Positions 2,329 through 28,373 of a stretch of 40,468 nt of DNA are shown here, one piece after another. This stretch comes from a virus (Duplodnaviria; Caudoviricetes), in IMG/VR virus record IMGVR_UViG_3300037484_000276, positions 1 through 40,468 of that record, one strand, 5' to 3'. Position numbers and translations under genes: made by a program. Positions within the stretch are counted from its first letter, which is position 1; each line of letters opens with the position of its first letter. The notes beneath the pieces are model-generated. The model had not been told where the DNA came from, ran no database searches, and saw only the letters and a program-made list of their open reading frames with translations.

Positions 2329-3891
2329 TTATTTCTTTTCTTCTATGTGCGGGATTATGGCCTCGCTCGTAATGACTTGCATAGCCACGCTTGTTGCGTT
2401 GTAAACGGCCGACGTTAACACTTCGGTAGGATCGACTATTCCTTCCTTAATCATGTTGCAAATTTCCCCCGTAATGATATTCAATCCTGTTTCCCCATCC
2501 TTGTCTTTTAATATTTCCTTGTATTCTCCGGCGTCCAGTCCCGCGTTCTCAAGGAGCTTTCTGAATGGCGACTGCAAGGCGTTCCTCATGATTGTTGAAG
2601 TGCTATCTTGTCTCAAAATTGAAAGGGCTATGTTAAGCAATGTTATTTCCCCCCCTGCGACCACGCCGCTCCTTGTGGCCGTCTTGGTAGCTTCCACGGC
2701 GTCTTCCACGCGTTCCTTACGTTCTCGCATTTCCACTTCCGTCGCGCCGCCTACTTTGATCACGGCGACCGATCCCGTAAGCTTGGCGAGCCTCTCTTGC
2801 AATTTGGCTATATCGAAACTGCTCTCCGATTCATCGATTTGTTTTCTTATAGATTTTATCCTTACCTCGATGTCTTTCTTGTTGCCCTTGCCGCCAGTAA
2901 TGATCGTCGCGTCTTTGGTTGATTTAACCTTCTCAGCATAGCCCAAATGTTCGAATTTGATATCCTTTAACTTGACACCTGTGTCCTCTCCGATCACGGT
3001 AGCGCCAGTTAAGATTGCCATGTCAGTCAACAATGCCTTTTGTATGTTTTCAAATAATGGAGCTTGAACGCAAAGCACGTTCAATTTGCCATTCATTTTG
3101 TTGACTACAAAAGAAGGAAGCACGTTCCCCTCGTAGTCCTGCGCTATAACAAAAAGGGTCTTGCCATTAGGGATAAGTTCTTTAATTAAAAATGGTTGTA
3201 TTTCCTCCGTGAAATCACTCAAAACCATGTCCGTAACGAGTATTCTTGCTCCTTCCAAGACCGCCGTTTCGTCCTCTGGATTTGTGATAAAGTGCGGAAG
3301 CCTCCATCCCTGGTCTATCTGCAGTCCCTCCTGCATATCCACCGTAGTATCCCTACTGTGGCTTTCTTCCACTGTAGATACTCCATCTGCCCCTATTTTA
3401 TGGATCGTAGTACCTATCATATCGCCGAGGTCCTTATTGGCAGAGGATATAGTCGCAACTTGTATTTTTTGTTCCTTGGTATATATAGGTATGGAAACTT
3501 GCTTAATCTTGTCTATTACTTCATCTCTCAATTTTTCTAATCCGTCGCGCAGGCTCATGGCGTTCACGCCAGCGGCCACTATCTTATTCGCTTCGTATGC
3601 CAGTGAGCGAGCGAGTATTATTGTTAATGTTGTACCGTCACCCACTTCTTCTACCTGCTTTTTGGCTGATTGTAGAAGAATGTCTGCTCCTATTTTTTCA
3701 TAAGGGTTAGTGAGCTTTACACTTTCAGCTACACGGAAACCGTCATGAATAGTAAGCGTTTCAAAACCCTTGTCAATACAGACATTATTGCCTCGTGGCC
3801 CTAAGGTTGTAGCAACAACCCGATACATGGTTTCCATCCCTTTAAGAATTTTTTCTCTTGCTTCTTTGCCGTATAATATTTTACTTTTCAC
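2329..3891 (-). CDS. groEL: Phage-encoded group I chaperonin GroEL/Cpn60
   Basis: TLGPRG, GDGTT, LQERLAKL, VIKVGGATEVEMRERKERVEDA, GIVDP; no GGM tail. Confidence 0.97.
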   Translation of the reverse strand: MKSKILYGKEAREKILKGMETMYRVVATTLGPRGNNVCIDKGFETLTIHDGFRVAESVKLTNPYEKIGADILLQSAKKQVEEVGDGTTLTIILARSLAYEANKIVAAGVNAMSLRDGLEKLRDEVIDKIKQVSIPIYTKEQKIQVATISSANKDLGDMIGTTIHKIGADGVSTVEESHSRDTTVDMQEGLQIDQGWRLPHFITNPEDETAVLEGARILVTDMVLSDFTEEIQPFLIKELIPNGKTLFVIAQDYEGNVLPSFVVNKMNGKLNVLCVQAPLFENIQKALLTDMAILTGATVIGEDTGVKLKDIKFEHLGYAEKVKSTKDATIITGGKGNKKDIEVRIKSIRKQIDESESSFDIAKLQERLAKLTGSVAVIKVGGATEVEMRERKERVEDAVEATKTATRSGVVAGGEITLLNIALSILRQDSTSTIMRNALQSPFRKLLENAGLDAGEYKEILKDKDGETGLNIITGEICNMIKEGIVDPTEVLTSAVYNATSVAMQVITSEAIIPHIEEKK

Positions 3892-4177
3892 TTAAGGTCC
3901 CCCTTATGCTTTCAAATGGGATTATCAAATGTTCAACGTCATCAAGATAGATCTTGTCCGCCCTGTATGGACTAAAAATTATTGTATCTCCGGTATTTAA
4001 CTTGGCCTCGATGTATCCGCCCGAGACATGGAGCATGGGCGCTCCGACCACAACTACTTCTCCTCGTGTGGATTGCGAACCCGCCTTGTCTGCGGTAAGT
4101 ATGGTTTCCGATTGAGTGTCTTGTGTTTTTACTAGGATATATCCTTGGTATGGAGTGAATCGAACTATTTTGTTCAT
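3881..4177 (-). CDS. groES: Co-chaperonin GroES/Cpn10
   Basis: 98 aa with P...ILVK, RGEVVVVG, GDTIIF, EHLII...IRG; directly upstream of groEL. Confidence 0.9.
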   Translation of the reverse strand: MNKIVRFTPYQGYILVKTQDTQSETILTADKAGSQSTRGEVVVVGAPMLHVSGGYIEAKLNTGDTIIFSPYRADKIYLDDVEHLIIPFESIRGTLSEK

Positions 4178-8142: not shown

Positions 8143-8308
8143 TTTTATATCTTGTCAAAAACCCCAAATGATGTTCCATTAAAATCCTTCTCTCCCAATG
8201 GGCCAGCATTTTACATCTCGCACCACAATAGGCTTTGGTCATTCCATGAGATTTTTTTCTAAAATCTCTCTTACAAACTGGACACTTGCCGTAAACTATT
8301 TTTTTCAT
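8129..8308 (-). CDS. Small Zn-finger protein (59 aa)
   Basis: CPVC...YCGARC; ATGA overlap with the upstream ORF. Confidence 0.6.
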   Translation of the reverse strand: MKKIVYGKCPVCKRDFRKKSHGMTKAYCGARCKMLAHWERRILMEHHLGFLTRYKNVYK

Positions 8309-9454: not shown

Positions 9455-9925
9455 TTATTTCTTTACCGGCTTGGTTATCTCTTCAATATCCTTATCGGTT
9501 ATCTTGTCTTCACTTCCTTTAAGATACTGGAAGTTGGCAATATTAGTGTATGTCTGATCGCCCTTTGTGGTGTTTTCAGTTATAACCTTTACTGTCCTAT
9601 TAAGAAGACTCGAGACGTGGAAATCGTTAAACTCATCCTTGGCGTGCTCCTTGCCAGTAACCGCCTTCCAAACCTTATAAAGATTGCTTGGGTTTGGCTT
9701 TAGGGACAGCTTGGGACGGATTCTCCTAAACAGCTTTCGCCCTTCGTATTCCCCTGATAAAACTGTGAATTCAAACGTGTATACAGTCTCCATAGCGTCG
9801 GGATTCTTATAGACTGGTGCTTCTGTTTTTTTGATGTCTGAGATTACGACTTCGTAGGTGTCTTCTGGTATAGTTTCGAAGTCTTCGGTTATTACAATTT
9901 TAATATCGTCTATATTATCTGTCAT
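9455..9925 (-). CDS. Phage ssDNA-binding protein (DUF669-like OB fold)
   Basis: FETIPEDTYEVVISDI, FTVLSGEYEGRKLF, acidic tail; lies in the recombination module. Confidence 0.7.
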   Translation of the reverse strand: MTDNIDDIKIVITEDFETIPEDTYEVVISDIKKTEAPVYKNPDAMETVYTFEFTVLSGEYEGRKLFRRIRPKLSLKPNPSNLYKVWKAVTGKEHAKDEFNDFHVSSLLNRTVKVITENTTKGDQTYTNIANFQYLKGSEDKITDKDIEEITKPVKK

Positions 9926-13761: not shown

Positions 13762-13958
13762 ACGCCATCCCTTTCTATGACTTCACATACTTTTTTAGAA
13801 TAATAACTAGCCTTTTGGAGATACTTTTTTGACTTTAGAAGCGCAATTTCCTTATCAATATTTTTAAGTTGCCATGACCTTATAAACCACTTGTTGGATT
13901 TTTCTAGCCACTCATTGTGTTCCTTATTTAGAAGCTGTATATCAAGCCTCACCGGCAT
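13746..13958 (-). CDS. Hypothetical protein
   Basis: 70 aa overlapping the helicase start. Confidence 0.65.
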   Translation of the reverse strand: MPVRLDIQLLNKEHNEWLEKSNKWFIRSWQLKNIDKEIALLKSKKYLQKASYYSKKVCEVIERDGVWESR

Positions 13959-14202
13959 TTTTATCCTTTCTAGTTTTGTTATATTTTTTGTATTCCTCCT
14001 TAATATTTTTATTTATATCCTCAAGATCAAGCGAAAGCGCCAAGTAATATTTGATAAGTTCTTCTTCTTCGCTTTCTGTCAATGTATCTGGAGGGTATTT
14101 TTTTTCTGTAGTAGCGATTGTCCAGGATAATTGTGAGAGGCGTTTATATTCGCCTCGAAGTTTCATTAATATTTGAAAAAGGAGTATCTTGCTTTCACTC
14201 AT
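13942..14202 (-). CDS. Hypothetical protein
   Basis: Start moved to the ATG at 14202, 7 nt after TTGATA-17 nt-TATATT (14210-14238). Confidence 0.65.
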   Translation of the reverse strand: MSESKILLFQILMKLRGEYKRLSQLSWTIATTEKKYPPDTLTESEEEELIKYYLALSLDLEDINKNIKEEYKKYNKTRKDKNAGEA

Positions 14203-14243
14203 CACAATCAATATAAACAAACATATTATAAATATCAATAGCC

Positions 14244-14339
14244 AAAAAACATAGGCGACGGGTAGTTGGTTAGGTGGGTGAGTTGGAGAACCGGACTACC
14301 ATTGGTTTCCTCTATGTTTTACAAAATTAACGTCGCCTA
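14244..14339 (-). ncRNA. Candidate sRNA A (~95 nt)
   Basis: TATAAT at 14345-14350; ends pair TAGGCGACG/CGTCGCCTA; inner GGTAGT/ACTACC stem; T6 tract. Confidence 0.6.
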
Positions 14340-14356
14340 GAACAATTATACAGCTA

Positions 14357-14385
14357 TTGACAAAAATGTATGACAATCATAAAAT
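14357..14385 (+). promoter_or_regulatory. Sigma70 promoter for sRNA B
   Basis: TTGACA-17 nt-TAAAAT. Confidence 0.75.
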
Positions 14386-14391
14386 GTGGTT

Positions 14392-14489
14392 ACAAACTTT
14401 ATTTTTGAAGTTTGTCATTTTTATCATCTTCTTTCCTAACGGAAAGACAAGATTGGAGCAAGTTTGGGCAGGACTTGCTCCTTTCTTTT
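14392..14489 (+). ncRNA. Candidate sRNA B (~98 nt, three hairpins)
   Basis: ACAAACTT/AAGTTTGT; CTTTCC-TAAC-GGAAAG; GGAGCAAGT/ACTTGCTCC followed by TTTCTTTT. Confidence 0.6.
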
Positions 14490-14490
14490 G

Positions 14491-14703
14491 TCAAAACTCA
14501 TCATCCCCAAAGTCTAAATTCAATCTAATTTCTTCTCGGTTAATTATTAGCAGTAAATCGTCCACGATTCCTTTCTTGTCAAGGATGTTGGGCATATCAT
14601 CAAGCGATAAAAAAAGATTCCACAACTCATTCAAATATTGAAGTTCAACTACATTTACATACCTATTAGCTTTTTTAACAGCGTCAAATTTTTCTCTTTC
14701 CAT
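14491..14703 (-). CDS. Small acidic hypothetical protein (70 aa)
   Basis: MEREKFDAV...DFGDDEF; the TTG-start extension runs through a terminator hairpin, so the ATG at 14703 is preferred. Confidence 0.65.
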   Translation of the reverse strand: MEREKFDAVKKANRYVNVVELQYLNELWNLFLSLDDMPNILDKKGIVDDLLLIINREEIRLNLDFGDDEF

Positions 14704-14712
14704 TTTATTAAA

Positions 14713-14751
14713 CAAAAAGAGAGAAGCATCACTGTCAAAATGCCCCTCTCT
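14713..14751 (-). terminator. Intrinsic terminator-like hairpin
   Basis: AGAGAGGGGCAT / ATGCTTCTCTCT followed by TTTTG. Confidence 0.65.
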
Positions 14752-14754
14752 GTT

Positions 14755-14841
14755 TGAAAACAAGGCAATCGTTTCGTCACCGGCCAGCGTTAGGCCGTTA
14801 GGCCATTTGCGCGGTGATATTATTCGATTGACGAGTTTTCA
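14755..14841 (-). ncRNA. Rod-like structured element
   Basis: Nested stems TGAAAAC/GTTTTCA, CAATCG/CGATTG, TCACCG/CGGTGA and GGCC-TAAC-GGCC. Confidence 0.5.
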
Positions 14842-14859
14842 TAGTATAATTTATAAACG

Positions 14860-14907
14860 TGGTCCGGTGAAGGGATAATGAAACGTCCCCCAACTGGACC
14901 ATTTTTT
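14860..14907. terminator. Long hairpin just after the holin stop codon
   Basis: TGGTCCGGT/ACTGGACCA with inner GGGA/TCCC; T6 tract on the + strand. Confidence 0.55.
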
Positions 14908-15142
14908 ATTGACCTTTTAATTTGCGTAAATAATCATAAATAGCATTACCAGCATATAGTGCAATCGCAGTAAGAACACCATTGGTAGGAATAAAGTCCT
15001 GTAATGAGATACCATTTTCTTCTATCCTGGGGATTAAAAATCCTATATAAAGAATGCCGATAAAGACAACAAGTGGGCGTAAAAACAGTATCTGGTTTTC
15101 TAACCATTTACTTTGTAATTTAGAACTTAGTCTTATATTCAT
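14906..15142 (-). CDS. Putative holin
   Basis: 78 aa, two hydrophobic helices, basic C-terminus, directly after the endolysin; RBS AGGTGGTGAG. Confidence 0.7.
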   Translation of the reverse strand: MNIRLSSKLQSKWLENQILFLRPLVVFIGILYIGFLIPRIEENGISLQDFIPTNGVLTAIALYAGNAIYDYLRKLKGQ

Positions 15143-15182
15143 ATATACTCACCACCTATCGCGTGGCTTCACTTAATCGAGC

Positions 15183-16031
15183 CTATGCCCTACGAAACAA
15201 AGATACCAGTCTTTCTATCCTTCCATAAGCCATCAATGGATTTTGAGCTTTAAGCTTCTCAATTTCTTTATTCTTGTTTTCAACCTCTTCTTGAAGACTT
15301 TTATTTTCGATTTCAAGCTTTTGTTTTTCCCAAGTCGCCGTATCCCGCTCACTTCTTGCCTTATTATAGAGTTCTTCTTTTTCGGTCGCCTTATCGGTAA
15401 GTTTTTGATTATCTTCTGTAAGCAAACTAACTTCCCTAGCACGGTCCGCAAGTGCATCGTTGGCTGACTTGACCTGTTCCTTGAGTTGCTTTGTTTCGTC
15501 ATCATACTTTTTCGCCTTTTCAAAGAAAGCTCTGATGTCTCCCTCTTTTTCTATGTTTAAATTGTTTTCCTGTAATAAAGTTATTAGCCAGTTTGGCATA
15601 TTAGTATTAGTTTCTATTCTAGGCCTTAGCCATCCGATAACGGCCTTATAGTCGTGCTTCACTATTCTACTATATTTAGGAGTCCCGAAGTTCTGGTCGA
15701 ACGACTCAAAATTATTAATGTCCCCCGTCCCGTTCGAGATTGAAATATGGCCAGCGATTCCTCCAATTTTTTCGCTAAATATAACAAGATTCCCGACTCC
15801 AGGAACTCCCTCCGGCGAGTTGGCAATCAAATCAAAATATTTCTTTGTTAGATCAGTTGCCCGAGTATAAACTTCCTTTGCATATAAGTGGCGTATGGTA
15901 TCTCTAGGGATTCCGAGAAAGTCACAAAAAGCGTAAGCGAGGTCCATACATTGATTTTTGTTAGTAGGATCATTAACCTCTACAAATTTTCCATTATTTT
16001 GGTTGAAGAACTGTTGGAATTTTTCTTGCAT
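15183..16031 (-). CDS. Endolysin: CHAP domain plus long coiled coil
   Basis: NQCMDL (Cys), GHISI (His), FDQNF, IGWLRP; heptad-rich C-terminal half. Confidence 0.88.
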   Translation of the reverse strand: MQEKFQQFFNQNNGKFVEVNDPTNKNQCMDLAYAFCDFLGIPRDTIRHLYAKEVYTRATDLTKKYFDLIANSPEGVPGVGNLVIFSEKIGGIAGHISISNGTGDINNFESFDQNFGTPKYSRIVKHDYKAVIGWLRPRIETNTNMPNWLITLLQENNLNIEKEGDIRAFFEKAKKYDDETKQLKEQVKSANDALADRAREVSLLTEDNQKLTDKATEKEELYNKARSERDTATWEKQKLEIENKSLQEEVENKNKEIEKLKAQNPLMAYGRIERLVSLFRRA

Positions 16032-17406: not shown

Positions 17407-18159
17407 TCATTTAGATTGGATGAGGAGGGTGTTTTTGATTGACTTATTTATTTTTGTCGTATTAAAAATTTCATAATCCCAGTTGCCCCCCGCTGTAGGG
17501 TATTTGATACCATCATACCCCTCGCTTTTGAGTATATTCATTAGTTTGTCGTTAATATGTGGAACCGAGGGGTCAACACCAGCTTTTTCAAACATCGCCT
17601 TAGCTCTTGGTGATGTAGAAGGTAGTACTTGGAAATGATTTTCGTTTAAGGCAATAATACCTTCTCCATATCCCTTAGCAATATTTTCGTCTGAAGTGAA
17701 GTATAGTTTTTTCAAGTCGCTTCTTACCCCCATAGCATTTAGACTCTCTACATTCTGCTTCGTAGTAGCGTGATAAATCTTTGGATATTCCCTTACTCCC
17801 CCTACTCCTTTAGGTTGGGTGGAGAGTGGTTCCCAAGTTTTCCCAATTTTAATTTCAATGGATTCTTTTGGTATATTTTTTTTGGTCCAACCTTGTTCTG
17901 GGAATTCCTGCCAATCTTTAGGAAGTTTGGATCTATTAACTCTTAACATAACTTCTTCTAGAGAACCGTAACCACGAGTTAATTCTTCTGTTGGAGCAAA
18001 ATAGACACCTTTACCATATTGACCAGCCGAAGGATTAAGTCCTTGATTTTTAATGTTTTCTAAGGCCCTACTAGCCGTGGGTGATATGGATGCTGTTGCA
18101 TAAGAAGAGGCGTCTGCTTCGTTAAAACTTGTTGTTAGGTGTGTAGCTTCAACTGCCAT
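17407..18159 (-). CDS. Chimeric protein: virion-type N-terminus plus two ADP-ribosyltransferase-like domains
   Basis: Domain 1: IKNQGL...GKGVYFA...GYG...IPKESIE. Domain 2: IYHAT...LYFTSDENIAKGYG...GYDGIKY...DYEIF. Confidence 0.7.
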   Translation of the reverse strand: MAVEATHLTTSFNEADASSYATASISPTASRALENIKNQGLNPSAGQYGKGVYFAPTEELTRGYGSLEEVMLRVNRSKLPKDWQEFPEQGWTKKNIPKESIEIKIGKTWEPLSTQPKGVGGVREYPKIYHATTKQNVESLNAMGVRSDLKKLYFTSDENIAKGYGEGIIALNENHFQVLPSTSPRAKAMFEKAGVDPSVPHINDKLMNILKSEGYDGIKYPTAGGNWDYEIFNTTKINKSIKNTLLIQSK

Positions 18160-27830: not shown

Positions 27831-28373
27831 CTAGGCATTTAGCCTCTTCATAAGAAGTTCCTCTTTTAGCTTGATTTTCCTTTCCCTCTCGTCCAACATT
27901 TCCTTTCTATCACGGGACAATAGTTTTTCCTTCTCGATCTTTGATTCCATTATCTCAATGTCGCCCTTTCGCTGGTCAAGGTCACCCTTTTCCTTGTCGA
28001 GCTCGATCCTTACCTGTTCGTTGTCCATGACGATAAATTCTCTCTTGGCGATATCTTTTTTTAGGATTTCCAGGTTCTCATACGTTTTTTTTATATCGCC
28101 CTCCTGCTTCAGGATGGCATTTTCCCTTTGGACTAATTTATAAGAATAATTTGATAGTTCATCTTGAGCCTTTTTTAGGCTCTCCTTTTCTTTTTTGAAG
28201 TCCAGCTCTTTCAAACTAATAGTCCTTGCCTTTTCCGAGAGCTTTTTCTCGTTCTCGAGACTTACCTTGTCGCGGTTGTCTATTTTTTCGACGTACTGTG
28301 ACAATGCCAACAAATCTGCGGATAAGTTCTCTATCTTCGCTTTTATGGCCGTTATCTGTTCAAACATTGCCAT
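27831..28373 (-). CDS. Coiled-coil protein
   Basis: Glu/Lys heptads over 180 aa. Confidence 0.75.
   Translation of the reverse strand: MAMFEQITAIKAKIENLSADLLALSQYVEKIDNRDKVSLENEKKLSEKARTISLKELDFKKEKESLKKAQDELSNYSYKLVQRENAILKQEGDIKKTYENLEILKKDIAKREFIVMDNEQVRIELDKEKGDLDQRKGDIEIMESKIEKEKLLSRDRKEMLDERERKIKLKEELLMKRLNA

Follow-up and report, generated by a model that had tools for sequence, protein, structure and literature searches.

A candidate sRNA with a C-rich loop and its predicted pairing with the leader of a holin-like gene in a sediment phage

Lysis timing in phages is usually credited to protein antiholins and dual starts. A short non-coding unit near the lysis genes of a sediment phage raises the question of whether an RNA could also take part. 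The unit occupies the minus strand at positions 14244-14350 of the window, which is the whole 40,468-nt stretch of DNA that was analysed and the complete IMG/VR virus record IMGVR_UViG_3300037484_000276. Judging from its sequence and predicted fold, the unit is likely to be a real, lineage-specific gene for an sRNA with a C-rich loop. Its most likely role, put forward tentatively on the basis of modelled pairing, would be that of a dispensable trans repressor of holin translation.

The phage genome is 97% complete and possesses a tailed-phage gene set, including terminase, portal, major head, endolysin and groES/groEL genes. Nearly all of its genes are carried by the minus strand. At 14 of the 61 phage starts, a TAnnAT box lies 4-9 nt ahead of the start codon, an arrangement of the leaderless type. 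Shine-Dalgarno (SD) sequences of -8.4 kcal/mol or stronger precede merely nine of the 61 genes, among them the holin-like gene, so an RNA that covers SDs would be expected to act on few phage genes. The groEL and ssb-like genes are SD-led, as is the holin-like gene. Relatives of the phage were gathered via the replication protein, which yielded 11 viral loci and three genome loci. The usual order, seen in most of them, is endolysin, holin-like gene, variable slot, early promoter, small early genes and replication gene. One of the genome loci (L028) belongs to a Patescibacteria bin, and the bins of the other two are labelled Pacearchaeota and Gammaproteobacteria. From these bins, the host of the phage appears to be Patescibacteria-like. 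A GroEL search named no host. The groES-groEL pair itself (2329-4177, minus strand) includes a GroEL of a divergent clade, the close homologues of which are found mostly on short or ~40-kb contigs. Elsewhere on the minus strand, a TET-associated glycosyltransferase-like gene adjoins a ParB/methyltransferase-like gene (200-1560), possibly as a DNA-modification module. Additionally, a 250-aa protein (17407-18159) has a weak, below-cut-off match to an ADP-ribosyltransferase (ART-PolyVal). The resemblance of its first residues to another protein, one that starts near position 35 of the contig L022, the closest relative, suggests a swapped C-terminal part.

The features of the candidate sRNA unit and of the lysis genes are collected in the table. 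A sequence-only reading of the locus had described a minus-strand unit with a TATAAT box, a 9-bp closing stem, a GGTAGT/ACTACC inner stem and a T6 run, and all four were confirmed by direct reading of the sequence. Specifically, the closing stem pairs 14339-14331 with 14260-14252, and the 6-bp inner stem pairs 14300-14295 with 14266-14261. An extra 4-bp GGTT/AACC stem, absent from the earlier list, is also present. The 9-bp stem is stacked on the 6-bp and 4-bp stems and exposes a 17-nt C/A loop that is computed to be about 90% unpaired across the ensemble. For the 96-nt strand, the folding energy is -21.9 kcal/mol and z is -2.43, which becomes -3.12 when the tail is left out (89 nt). Since z values of -2.4 or lower occur in 8 of 213 tiled 95-nt minus-strand windows of the phage genome, the fold taken alone is only moderately unusual. 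The alternative fold (AAAACATAG/CTATGTTTT) that had also been noted does exist, solely for a 5'-truncated 82-mer (-16.5 vs. -21.9 kcal/mol).

Table. Features of the candidate sRNA unit, its flanking promoter-like sites and the lysis genes (window coordinates)
Feature	Position	Strand	Basis or remark
First early gene, own promoter-like site	14210..14238	-	promoter scan, 10/12
Putative 3' end, T6 run that follows the closing stem	14244..14249	-	sequence
Predicted ~95-nt sRNA	14244..14338	-	fold z; predicted start 14339/14338 and end within the T6 run
3' arm, inner and closing stem	14252..14266	-	fold; decayed copy in L022
Open C/A-rich loop with UCACC core	14271..14288	-	predicted seed 14283-14271
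5' arm, 9-bp closing stem	14331..14339	-	pairing probability near 1
-10 box TATAAT, predicted sRNA promoter	14345..14350	-	sequence; identical in L022
Divergent promoter-like site, TTGACA-17-TAAAAT	14357..14385	+	scan, 11/12; back to back with the sRNA TATAAT; conserved in L022
Holin-like gene, 78 aa	14906..15142	-	directly after the endolysin; hydropathy
Predicted target, SD region of the holin-like gene	15147..15158	-	pairing with the loop; -11.5 kcal/mol
Endolysin	15183..16031	-	PHROG endolysin families, E 2e-19

The gap between the TATAAT and the 5' stem is 5 nt, which falls inside the 4-9 nt spacing of the leaderless-type genes of the phage. A sigma-70 scan found no -35/-10 pair for this TATAAT and no good -35, and a terminator scan did not call the unit or its T6. 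No ATG-led ORF of note lies inside the unit. The downstream gene had been said to have a promoter of its own, and such a promoter-like site was found. It ends 7 nt ahead of the ATG of the first early gene (13942-14202), which is leaderless, and syntenic orthologues of this gene in L012-L014, L016, L019 and L027 likewise lie behind a TTGACA-type promoter. When the whole window was compared with curated Rfam families, including RsaE, RNAIII, 6C, c4, tracrRNA, 6S, SRP and tmRNA, there were no matches at the gathering cut-off. At E<=10, eight weak matches were obtained over 13900-15300, none of them on the minus-strand unit. One of the rejected candidates was a Qrr match (E 0.28), which lay on the opposite strand and far below the cut-off. 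A likeness to tracrRNA and to the 16S terminal helix was also dropped, as Rfam gave no such match. ARAGORN gave no match either. The unit is spanned with no differences by a 1394-nt contig from one DNA sequencing run, possibly of the source sample itself.

The holin role of the predicted target gene is inferred from its position and composition. The 78-aa protein has a clear hydrophobic segment at residues 19-37 (hydropathy 2.4), a second, weak one (0.9) and a basic C-terminus, and thus has the features expected of a holin, which is a small membrane protein beside the endolysin with a basic C-terminus. Six homologues at 71-78%, all in ENA/Logan contigs, and 108 at E<=1e-3 were recovered, and among 60 of the 115 homologue identifiers that were scanned, there was no Pfam or PHROG match to a named holin family. 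The look-alike Atlas clusters of the protein are viral, and one of them, with a score of 0.90, is automatically named holin. Atlas clusters of holin families score just 0.83-0.85 against the protein. Immediately past the holin-like stop codon, both the window (14860-14901, minus strand) and L022 (2090-2131) possess a hairpin with a C-rich arm containing TCACC. The two differences between these hairpins exchange G-U for A-U within the stem, so pairing is preserved.

The pairing between the loop (14283-14271) and the leader of the holin-like gene (15158-15147) was found exactly as the sequence-only reading had quoted it, with 12 Watson-Crick bp and one bulged C. Apart from the opposite strand of the RNA itself, the holin-like start is the sole 12-bp partner of the loop in the 40-kb genome, and the runner-up phage start reaches 7 bp (Watson-Crick count, one bulge allowed). 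With the opening energies of both RNAs included, the holin-like start ranks first of the 61 phage starts, followed by one at -9.9 kcal/mol. The site therefore scores better than background, contrary to what had been named as grounds for refutation. Among shuffled loops, 12 bp were reached at the holin-like start by 8 of 5000 (0.16%) and at any of the 61 starts by none of 300. When the UCACC core was held fixed, 12 bp were reached by 64 of 5000 (1.3%). Duplex energy discriminates less well. It was matched by 40 of 2000 shuffled loops at the holin-like start and by 61 of 500 at any start (2-12%), and by 220 of 2000 with UCACC fixed. By raw duplex energy, about nine other sites in the genome are better and the holin site is only about tenth. 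In whole-molecule cofolding, in which the entire RNA unfolds into a nested duplex, the holin-like start ranks sixth of 61. Two further stretches in which the RNA and the beginning of the holin coding region are complementary at 10/12 were set aside, since they lie in paired parts and the rank in cofolding stays the same. Overall, the holin match exceeds background, and a good part of it is what would be expected of any anti-SD-like loop facing a strong GGUGA SD. A UCACC core in a C-rich loop, placed against an SD of this type, accounts for much of the match (p ~0.01-0.11, core fixed).

The closest relative provides a direct comparison. L022 is a 3.2-kb JGI contig that was reached via the sole homologue of a 70-aa ORF upstream of the unit. 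Its endolysin is identical to that of the window at 731 of 849 nt, and the flanks of the unit are 86-92% identical. The holin-like gene of L022 is different and distantly related (hhalign E 0.004), and it lies behind the same AGGTGGTGAGT SD, with which the loop would form a duplex of -17.1. Non-coding DNA as far as the end of the TATAAT is 88-92% identical. L022 then lacks 80 nt of the unit. Homology resumes with what is left of the 3' arm and continues over the T run into the beginning of the next promoter, and the early genes beyond differ. The unit behaves as one module, as its 5' stem starts 5 nt past the TATAAT, its 3' stem stops at the T6, and the sequence missing from L022 extends from the TATAAT as far as the 3' arm. 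In the remnant, comprising the 3' arm and the next base, all five substitutions are transitions from G/C in the window to A/T in L022. Four-fold sites of the endolysin, of which 33 of 81 differ, have no such bias (11 vs. 16). The differences in the 3' arm fit either selection on the helix in the window or decay after loss in L022, the direction of change not being fixable from two sequences. The comparison with L022 supports a real module, yet it also indicates that neither the SD and the promoter box nor lysis depends on this module. The proposal of an RNA antiholin stands in part. Of the 61 starts, the holin-like one is the leading predicted target, but L022 keeps the SD without the RNA, so any such control of lysis would be an optional extra.

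The absence of the unit from L022, together with the lack of any homologue found, could also reflect a recent non-functional insertion, e.g., a MITE-like element that has terminal inverted repeats and came to lie behind a TATAAT already in place. The terminal inverted repeats are indeed flanked by TA. However, L022 is not a clean empty site, as the decayed 3' arm remains, and there is no second copy in the phage and none above chance in 401 Patescibacteria genomes. Such an insertion is accordingly considered improbable.

The DNA between the holin-like gene and the unit contains further structured elements. A second structured non-coding unit (14712-14842, minus strand; L022 2149-2265) lies behind a promoter-like site (14871-14843) and precedes the 70-aa ORF. 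A long closing stem joins its 5' and 3' parts, and it also has a 14-codon ORF at the 5' extremity and a strong terminator hairpin, with fold z values of -5.4 in the window and -4.05 in L022. It is kept in L022 with loop deletions that preserve the structure, and is better conserved than the candidate sRNA. No further members of this unit were found in 53 sources. The 70-aa ORF (14491-14703, minus strand) encodes an acidic orphan with a single homologue among 5.8 billion clusters and no Atlas match. In the window as well as in L022, the region of the start codon of this ORF has a complement in one arm of a hairpin within its own 3' region. A three-hairpin unit on the opposite strand (14392-14490, plus; L022 2485-2590, minus; z -6.7 and -4.6, respectively) sits behind the divergent 11/12 promoter and is convergent with the 3' end of this ORF. 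With this layout, the unit could act as an antisense RNA, as in type I toxin-antitoxin pairs. Elsewhere, it has weak matches only, the best being in L065 (E 0.034).

A wider set of loci was obtained with an endolysin profile, which gave 80 loci. Of these, 39 were examined, and the 41 omitted consisted of one duplicate of L019 and contigs of ~14-15 kb. Together with 10 earlier loci they make 49, of which 43, including some near-duplicates, contain a holin-like candidate. In this phage group, very strong GGUGA-type SDs usually precede the holin-like genes (L011-L017, L028, L049-L071 and others), while many other genes look leaderless. An SD of -10 kcal/mol or stronger is present in 26 of the 43 candidates, a figure that is biased upward because the strongest SD was chosen. 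The AGGTGGTGA variant of the SD occurs ahead of the holin-like genes of L022, L049, L053 and L122, and no match to the RNA model was found in the genomes of the last three (0/5). A 12-bp complement within 2.5 kb downstream of the holin-like gene is present in one of the 43 loci (L063). It was rejected, as it lies in a poorly folding, repeat-rich stretch. None of the 43 holin-like genes has a comparable structured RNA partner.

Homologues of the unit itself were sought with a single-sequence covariance model, R1. The window was alone among 96 sources, i.e., there was no second member in 95 loci. Nor were there matches in 151 Patescibacteria genomes or in two sets of related phage records (0/5 and 0/5), and with the filters off, eight loci gave noise only (best E 0.31); a model built from one sequence is weak, and these blanks do not show absence. 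Searches by blastn against the 401 Patescibacteria genomes remained at chance level, with 21 matches at E<=0.05, those that cover the loop lying in open frames. The unit had no blastn match in GenBank phages and one chance match in plasmids. Pattern scans of IMG/VR DNA returned five loop/stem and four promoter-motif matches, all nine of which were discarded as unrelated contexts. Holin-based locus searches in viral, metagenome and genome collections found nothing. The loci searched thus do not share an RNA antiholin as a general feature.

At the same late/early junction, directly ahead of the early promoter, L016 (7372-7446) and L017 (4027-4081) possess unrelated long-loop stems. In L063, several TTATCCACA-like boxes (~8150-8260), DnaA-box-like, precede an early gene and may mark a phage origin. 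The stems in L016 and L017 speak for the possibility that the unit is a cis element, such as a long-loop terminator, an insulator or a short leader before the early promoter. It would then stop transcription from the conserved TATAAT and late read-through just ahead of the early promoter, and the match to the SD would be incidental, given that a strong G-rich SD is usual for the holin-like genes of these phages. The T6 directly adjoins the early -35 site, and both the frequency of strong SDs among the 43 candidates, with the upward bias noted above, and the weak energy significance of the holin match are in keeping with this explanation. In contrast, terminators do not usually enclose an internal region of 71 nt, the upstream DNA already contains strong terminator-like hairpins (14751-14718 and 14481-14455), and the uniqueness of the 12-bp Watson-Crick match has a p of ~0.01 even with the UCACC core fixed. 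A cis element is, on balance, the main competing explanation, though it seems rather unlikely.

The breadth of action of a trans-acting RNA was considered using a sample from the Patescibacteria genome G006 (200 kb, 168 ORFs, first ATG), in which starts were compared with internal controls. Sites of SD strength are not enriched, being found at 16 starts vs. 13 controls of 168. Boxes of the leaderless type occur at 45 starts vs. no controls. The loop score tracks SD strength across the 168 starts (r = 0.81), and other phage starts have accessibility-weighted scores of -9.9 to -7.9. These observations would suit a multi-target sRNA in the style of RsaE or 6C, acting on a few SD-led host or phage mRNAs, with the holin being one of several. 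However, none of the 168 host-type starts reaches -16 or is as strong as the holin site, and values of -10 or lower occur at 11 starts vs. 15 internal controls, the host being taken as Patescibacteria-like. A multi-target role is therefore regarded as unlikely.

The more speculative suggestion that the RNA, as a mimic of the 16S tail, silences SD-led mRNAs of the host across the board, with leaderless phage genes escaping, fared worse. In its favour, the loop and the 16S tail of G006 have the UCACC core in common, and 14 of the 61 phage genes look leaderless. The likeness to the 16S tail ends with these 5 nt, the G006 sample is poor in SDs and rich in leaderless-type starts, and its starts score no better than controls. 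A host of this kind would have little SD-led translation left to silence. Moreover, because the groEL, ssb-like and holin-like genes of the phage are themselves SD-led, a global silencer would hit them too, and the unit is absent from the closest relative. A global 16S mimic is thus highly improbable.

Repression of holin translation in trans, the reading preferred here, can be outlined as follows. A stand-alone RNA of ~95 nt would be transcribed from the TATAAT and terminated at the T6. The predicted pairing of its 5' and 3' ends would hold the single-stranded C-rich loop exposed. The loop may then bind the SD of the holin-like mRNA in trans, lowering 30S loading and translation through chaperone-free, G-C-rich loop pairing such as that of RsaE, RNAIII or 6C RNA. 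Weaker side targets with GGUGA- or GGAG-type SDs might include the ssb-like gene (9455-9925) and the genes at 961-1560 and 27831-28373. The trimmed holin levels would make the RNA an optional fine-tuner of lysis and not the core lysis clock. The more specific claim of a trans-encoded RNA antiholin is doubtful. Under it, a lytic phage of a Patescibacteria-like host, with mostly leaderless genes and a strong SD retained at the holin, would have acquired or preserved an RNA that covers this SD, and lysis would be timed by RNA-RNA pairing in place of a protein antiholin.

Protein antiholins, such as lambda S107 and T4 RI, act protein-on-protein. The candidate is like them in the proposed delay of holin action and differs in that it would act on translation initiation. 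It also resembles type I toxin-antitoxin systems, in which a small hydrophobic protein is accompanied by an RNA able to cover its SD. The pairing in those systems is extended. In contrast, the pairing of the candidate is 12 bp, and the 78-aa protein is part of a lysis cassette, lies after the endolysin and is free of the RNA in relatives. The constant linkage of a type I antitoxin to its toxin gene is not seen: L022 has a distant holin-like homologue with the same SD and without the RNA, and none of the 43 related genes has a structured partner.

By prediction, the candidate has both the unpaired C-rich loop and the accessible SD pairing of C-rich-loop sRNAs that target SDs. RsaE and RNAIII are documented as sRNAs of this kind, and like these S. 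aureus RNAs and Mycobacterium 6C, the candidate has an unpaired C-rich loop on a stem and predicted pairing with G-rich SDs (PMC3053349). For 6C RNA, chaperone independence is reported (PMC6486639). Unlike RsaE, RNAIII and 6C, to which it has no sequence or Rfam relation, the candidate is phage-encoded, has one loop and has a predicted target among the lysis genes. A single loop contact of RNAIII is reported to be insufficient for repression and a second contact is needed (PMC3053349); none is evident in the candidate.

Among phage RNAs, the c4 RNA of P1 and P7 is similar in that loop complementarity blocks the ribosome-binding region of a phage mRNA (PMC12197685). It controls an antirepressor and immunity, unlike the candidate, which is without an Rfam match. 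A literature search made up mainly of titles and abstract openings returned no trans sRNA acting on a holin SD and did return a cis antisense RNA on an endolysin. A similar search on Patescibacteria phage RNAs and leaderless translation found nothing on point in titles and abstract openings, and the portion of PMC12641261 covered contains nothing bearing on the candidate. The nearest lysis case in this literature is that cis antisense RNA, PAK_P4as15 of Pseudomonas phage PAK_P4, which is cis-encoded against the endolysin, ~550 nt long and, like the candidate, proposed to repress a lysis gene and delay lysis and absent from a related phage (PMC12197685). The candidate differs in being ~95 nt long, located ~800 nt away on the same strand and directed against a holin-like SD.

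The candidate is known from a single genome, by sequence and prediction. The window and L022 form a presence/absence pair that constitutes a natural experiment. If proven, the RNA would be the first regulatory RNA for these uncultured Patescibacteria-like phages, and it would add an RNA layer to the control of lysis.
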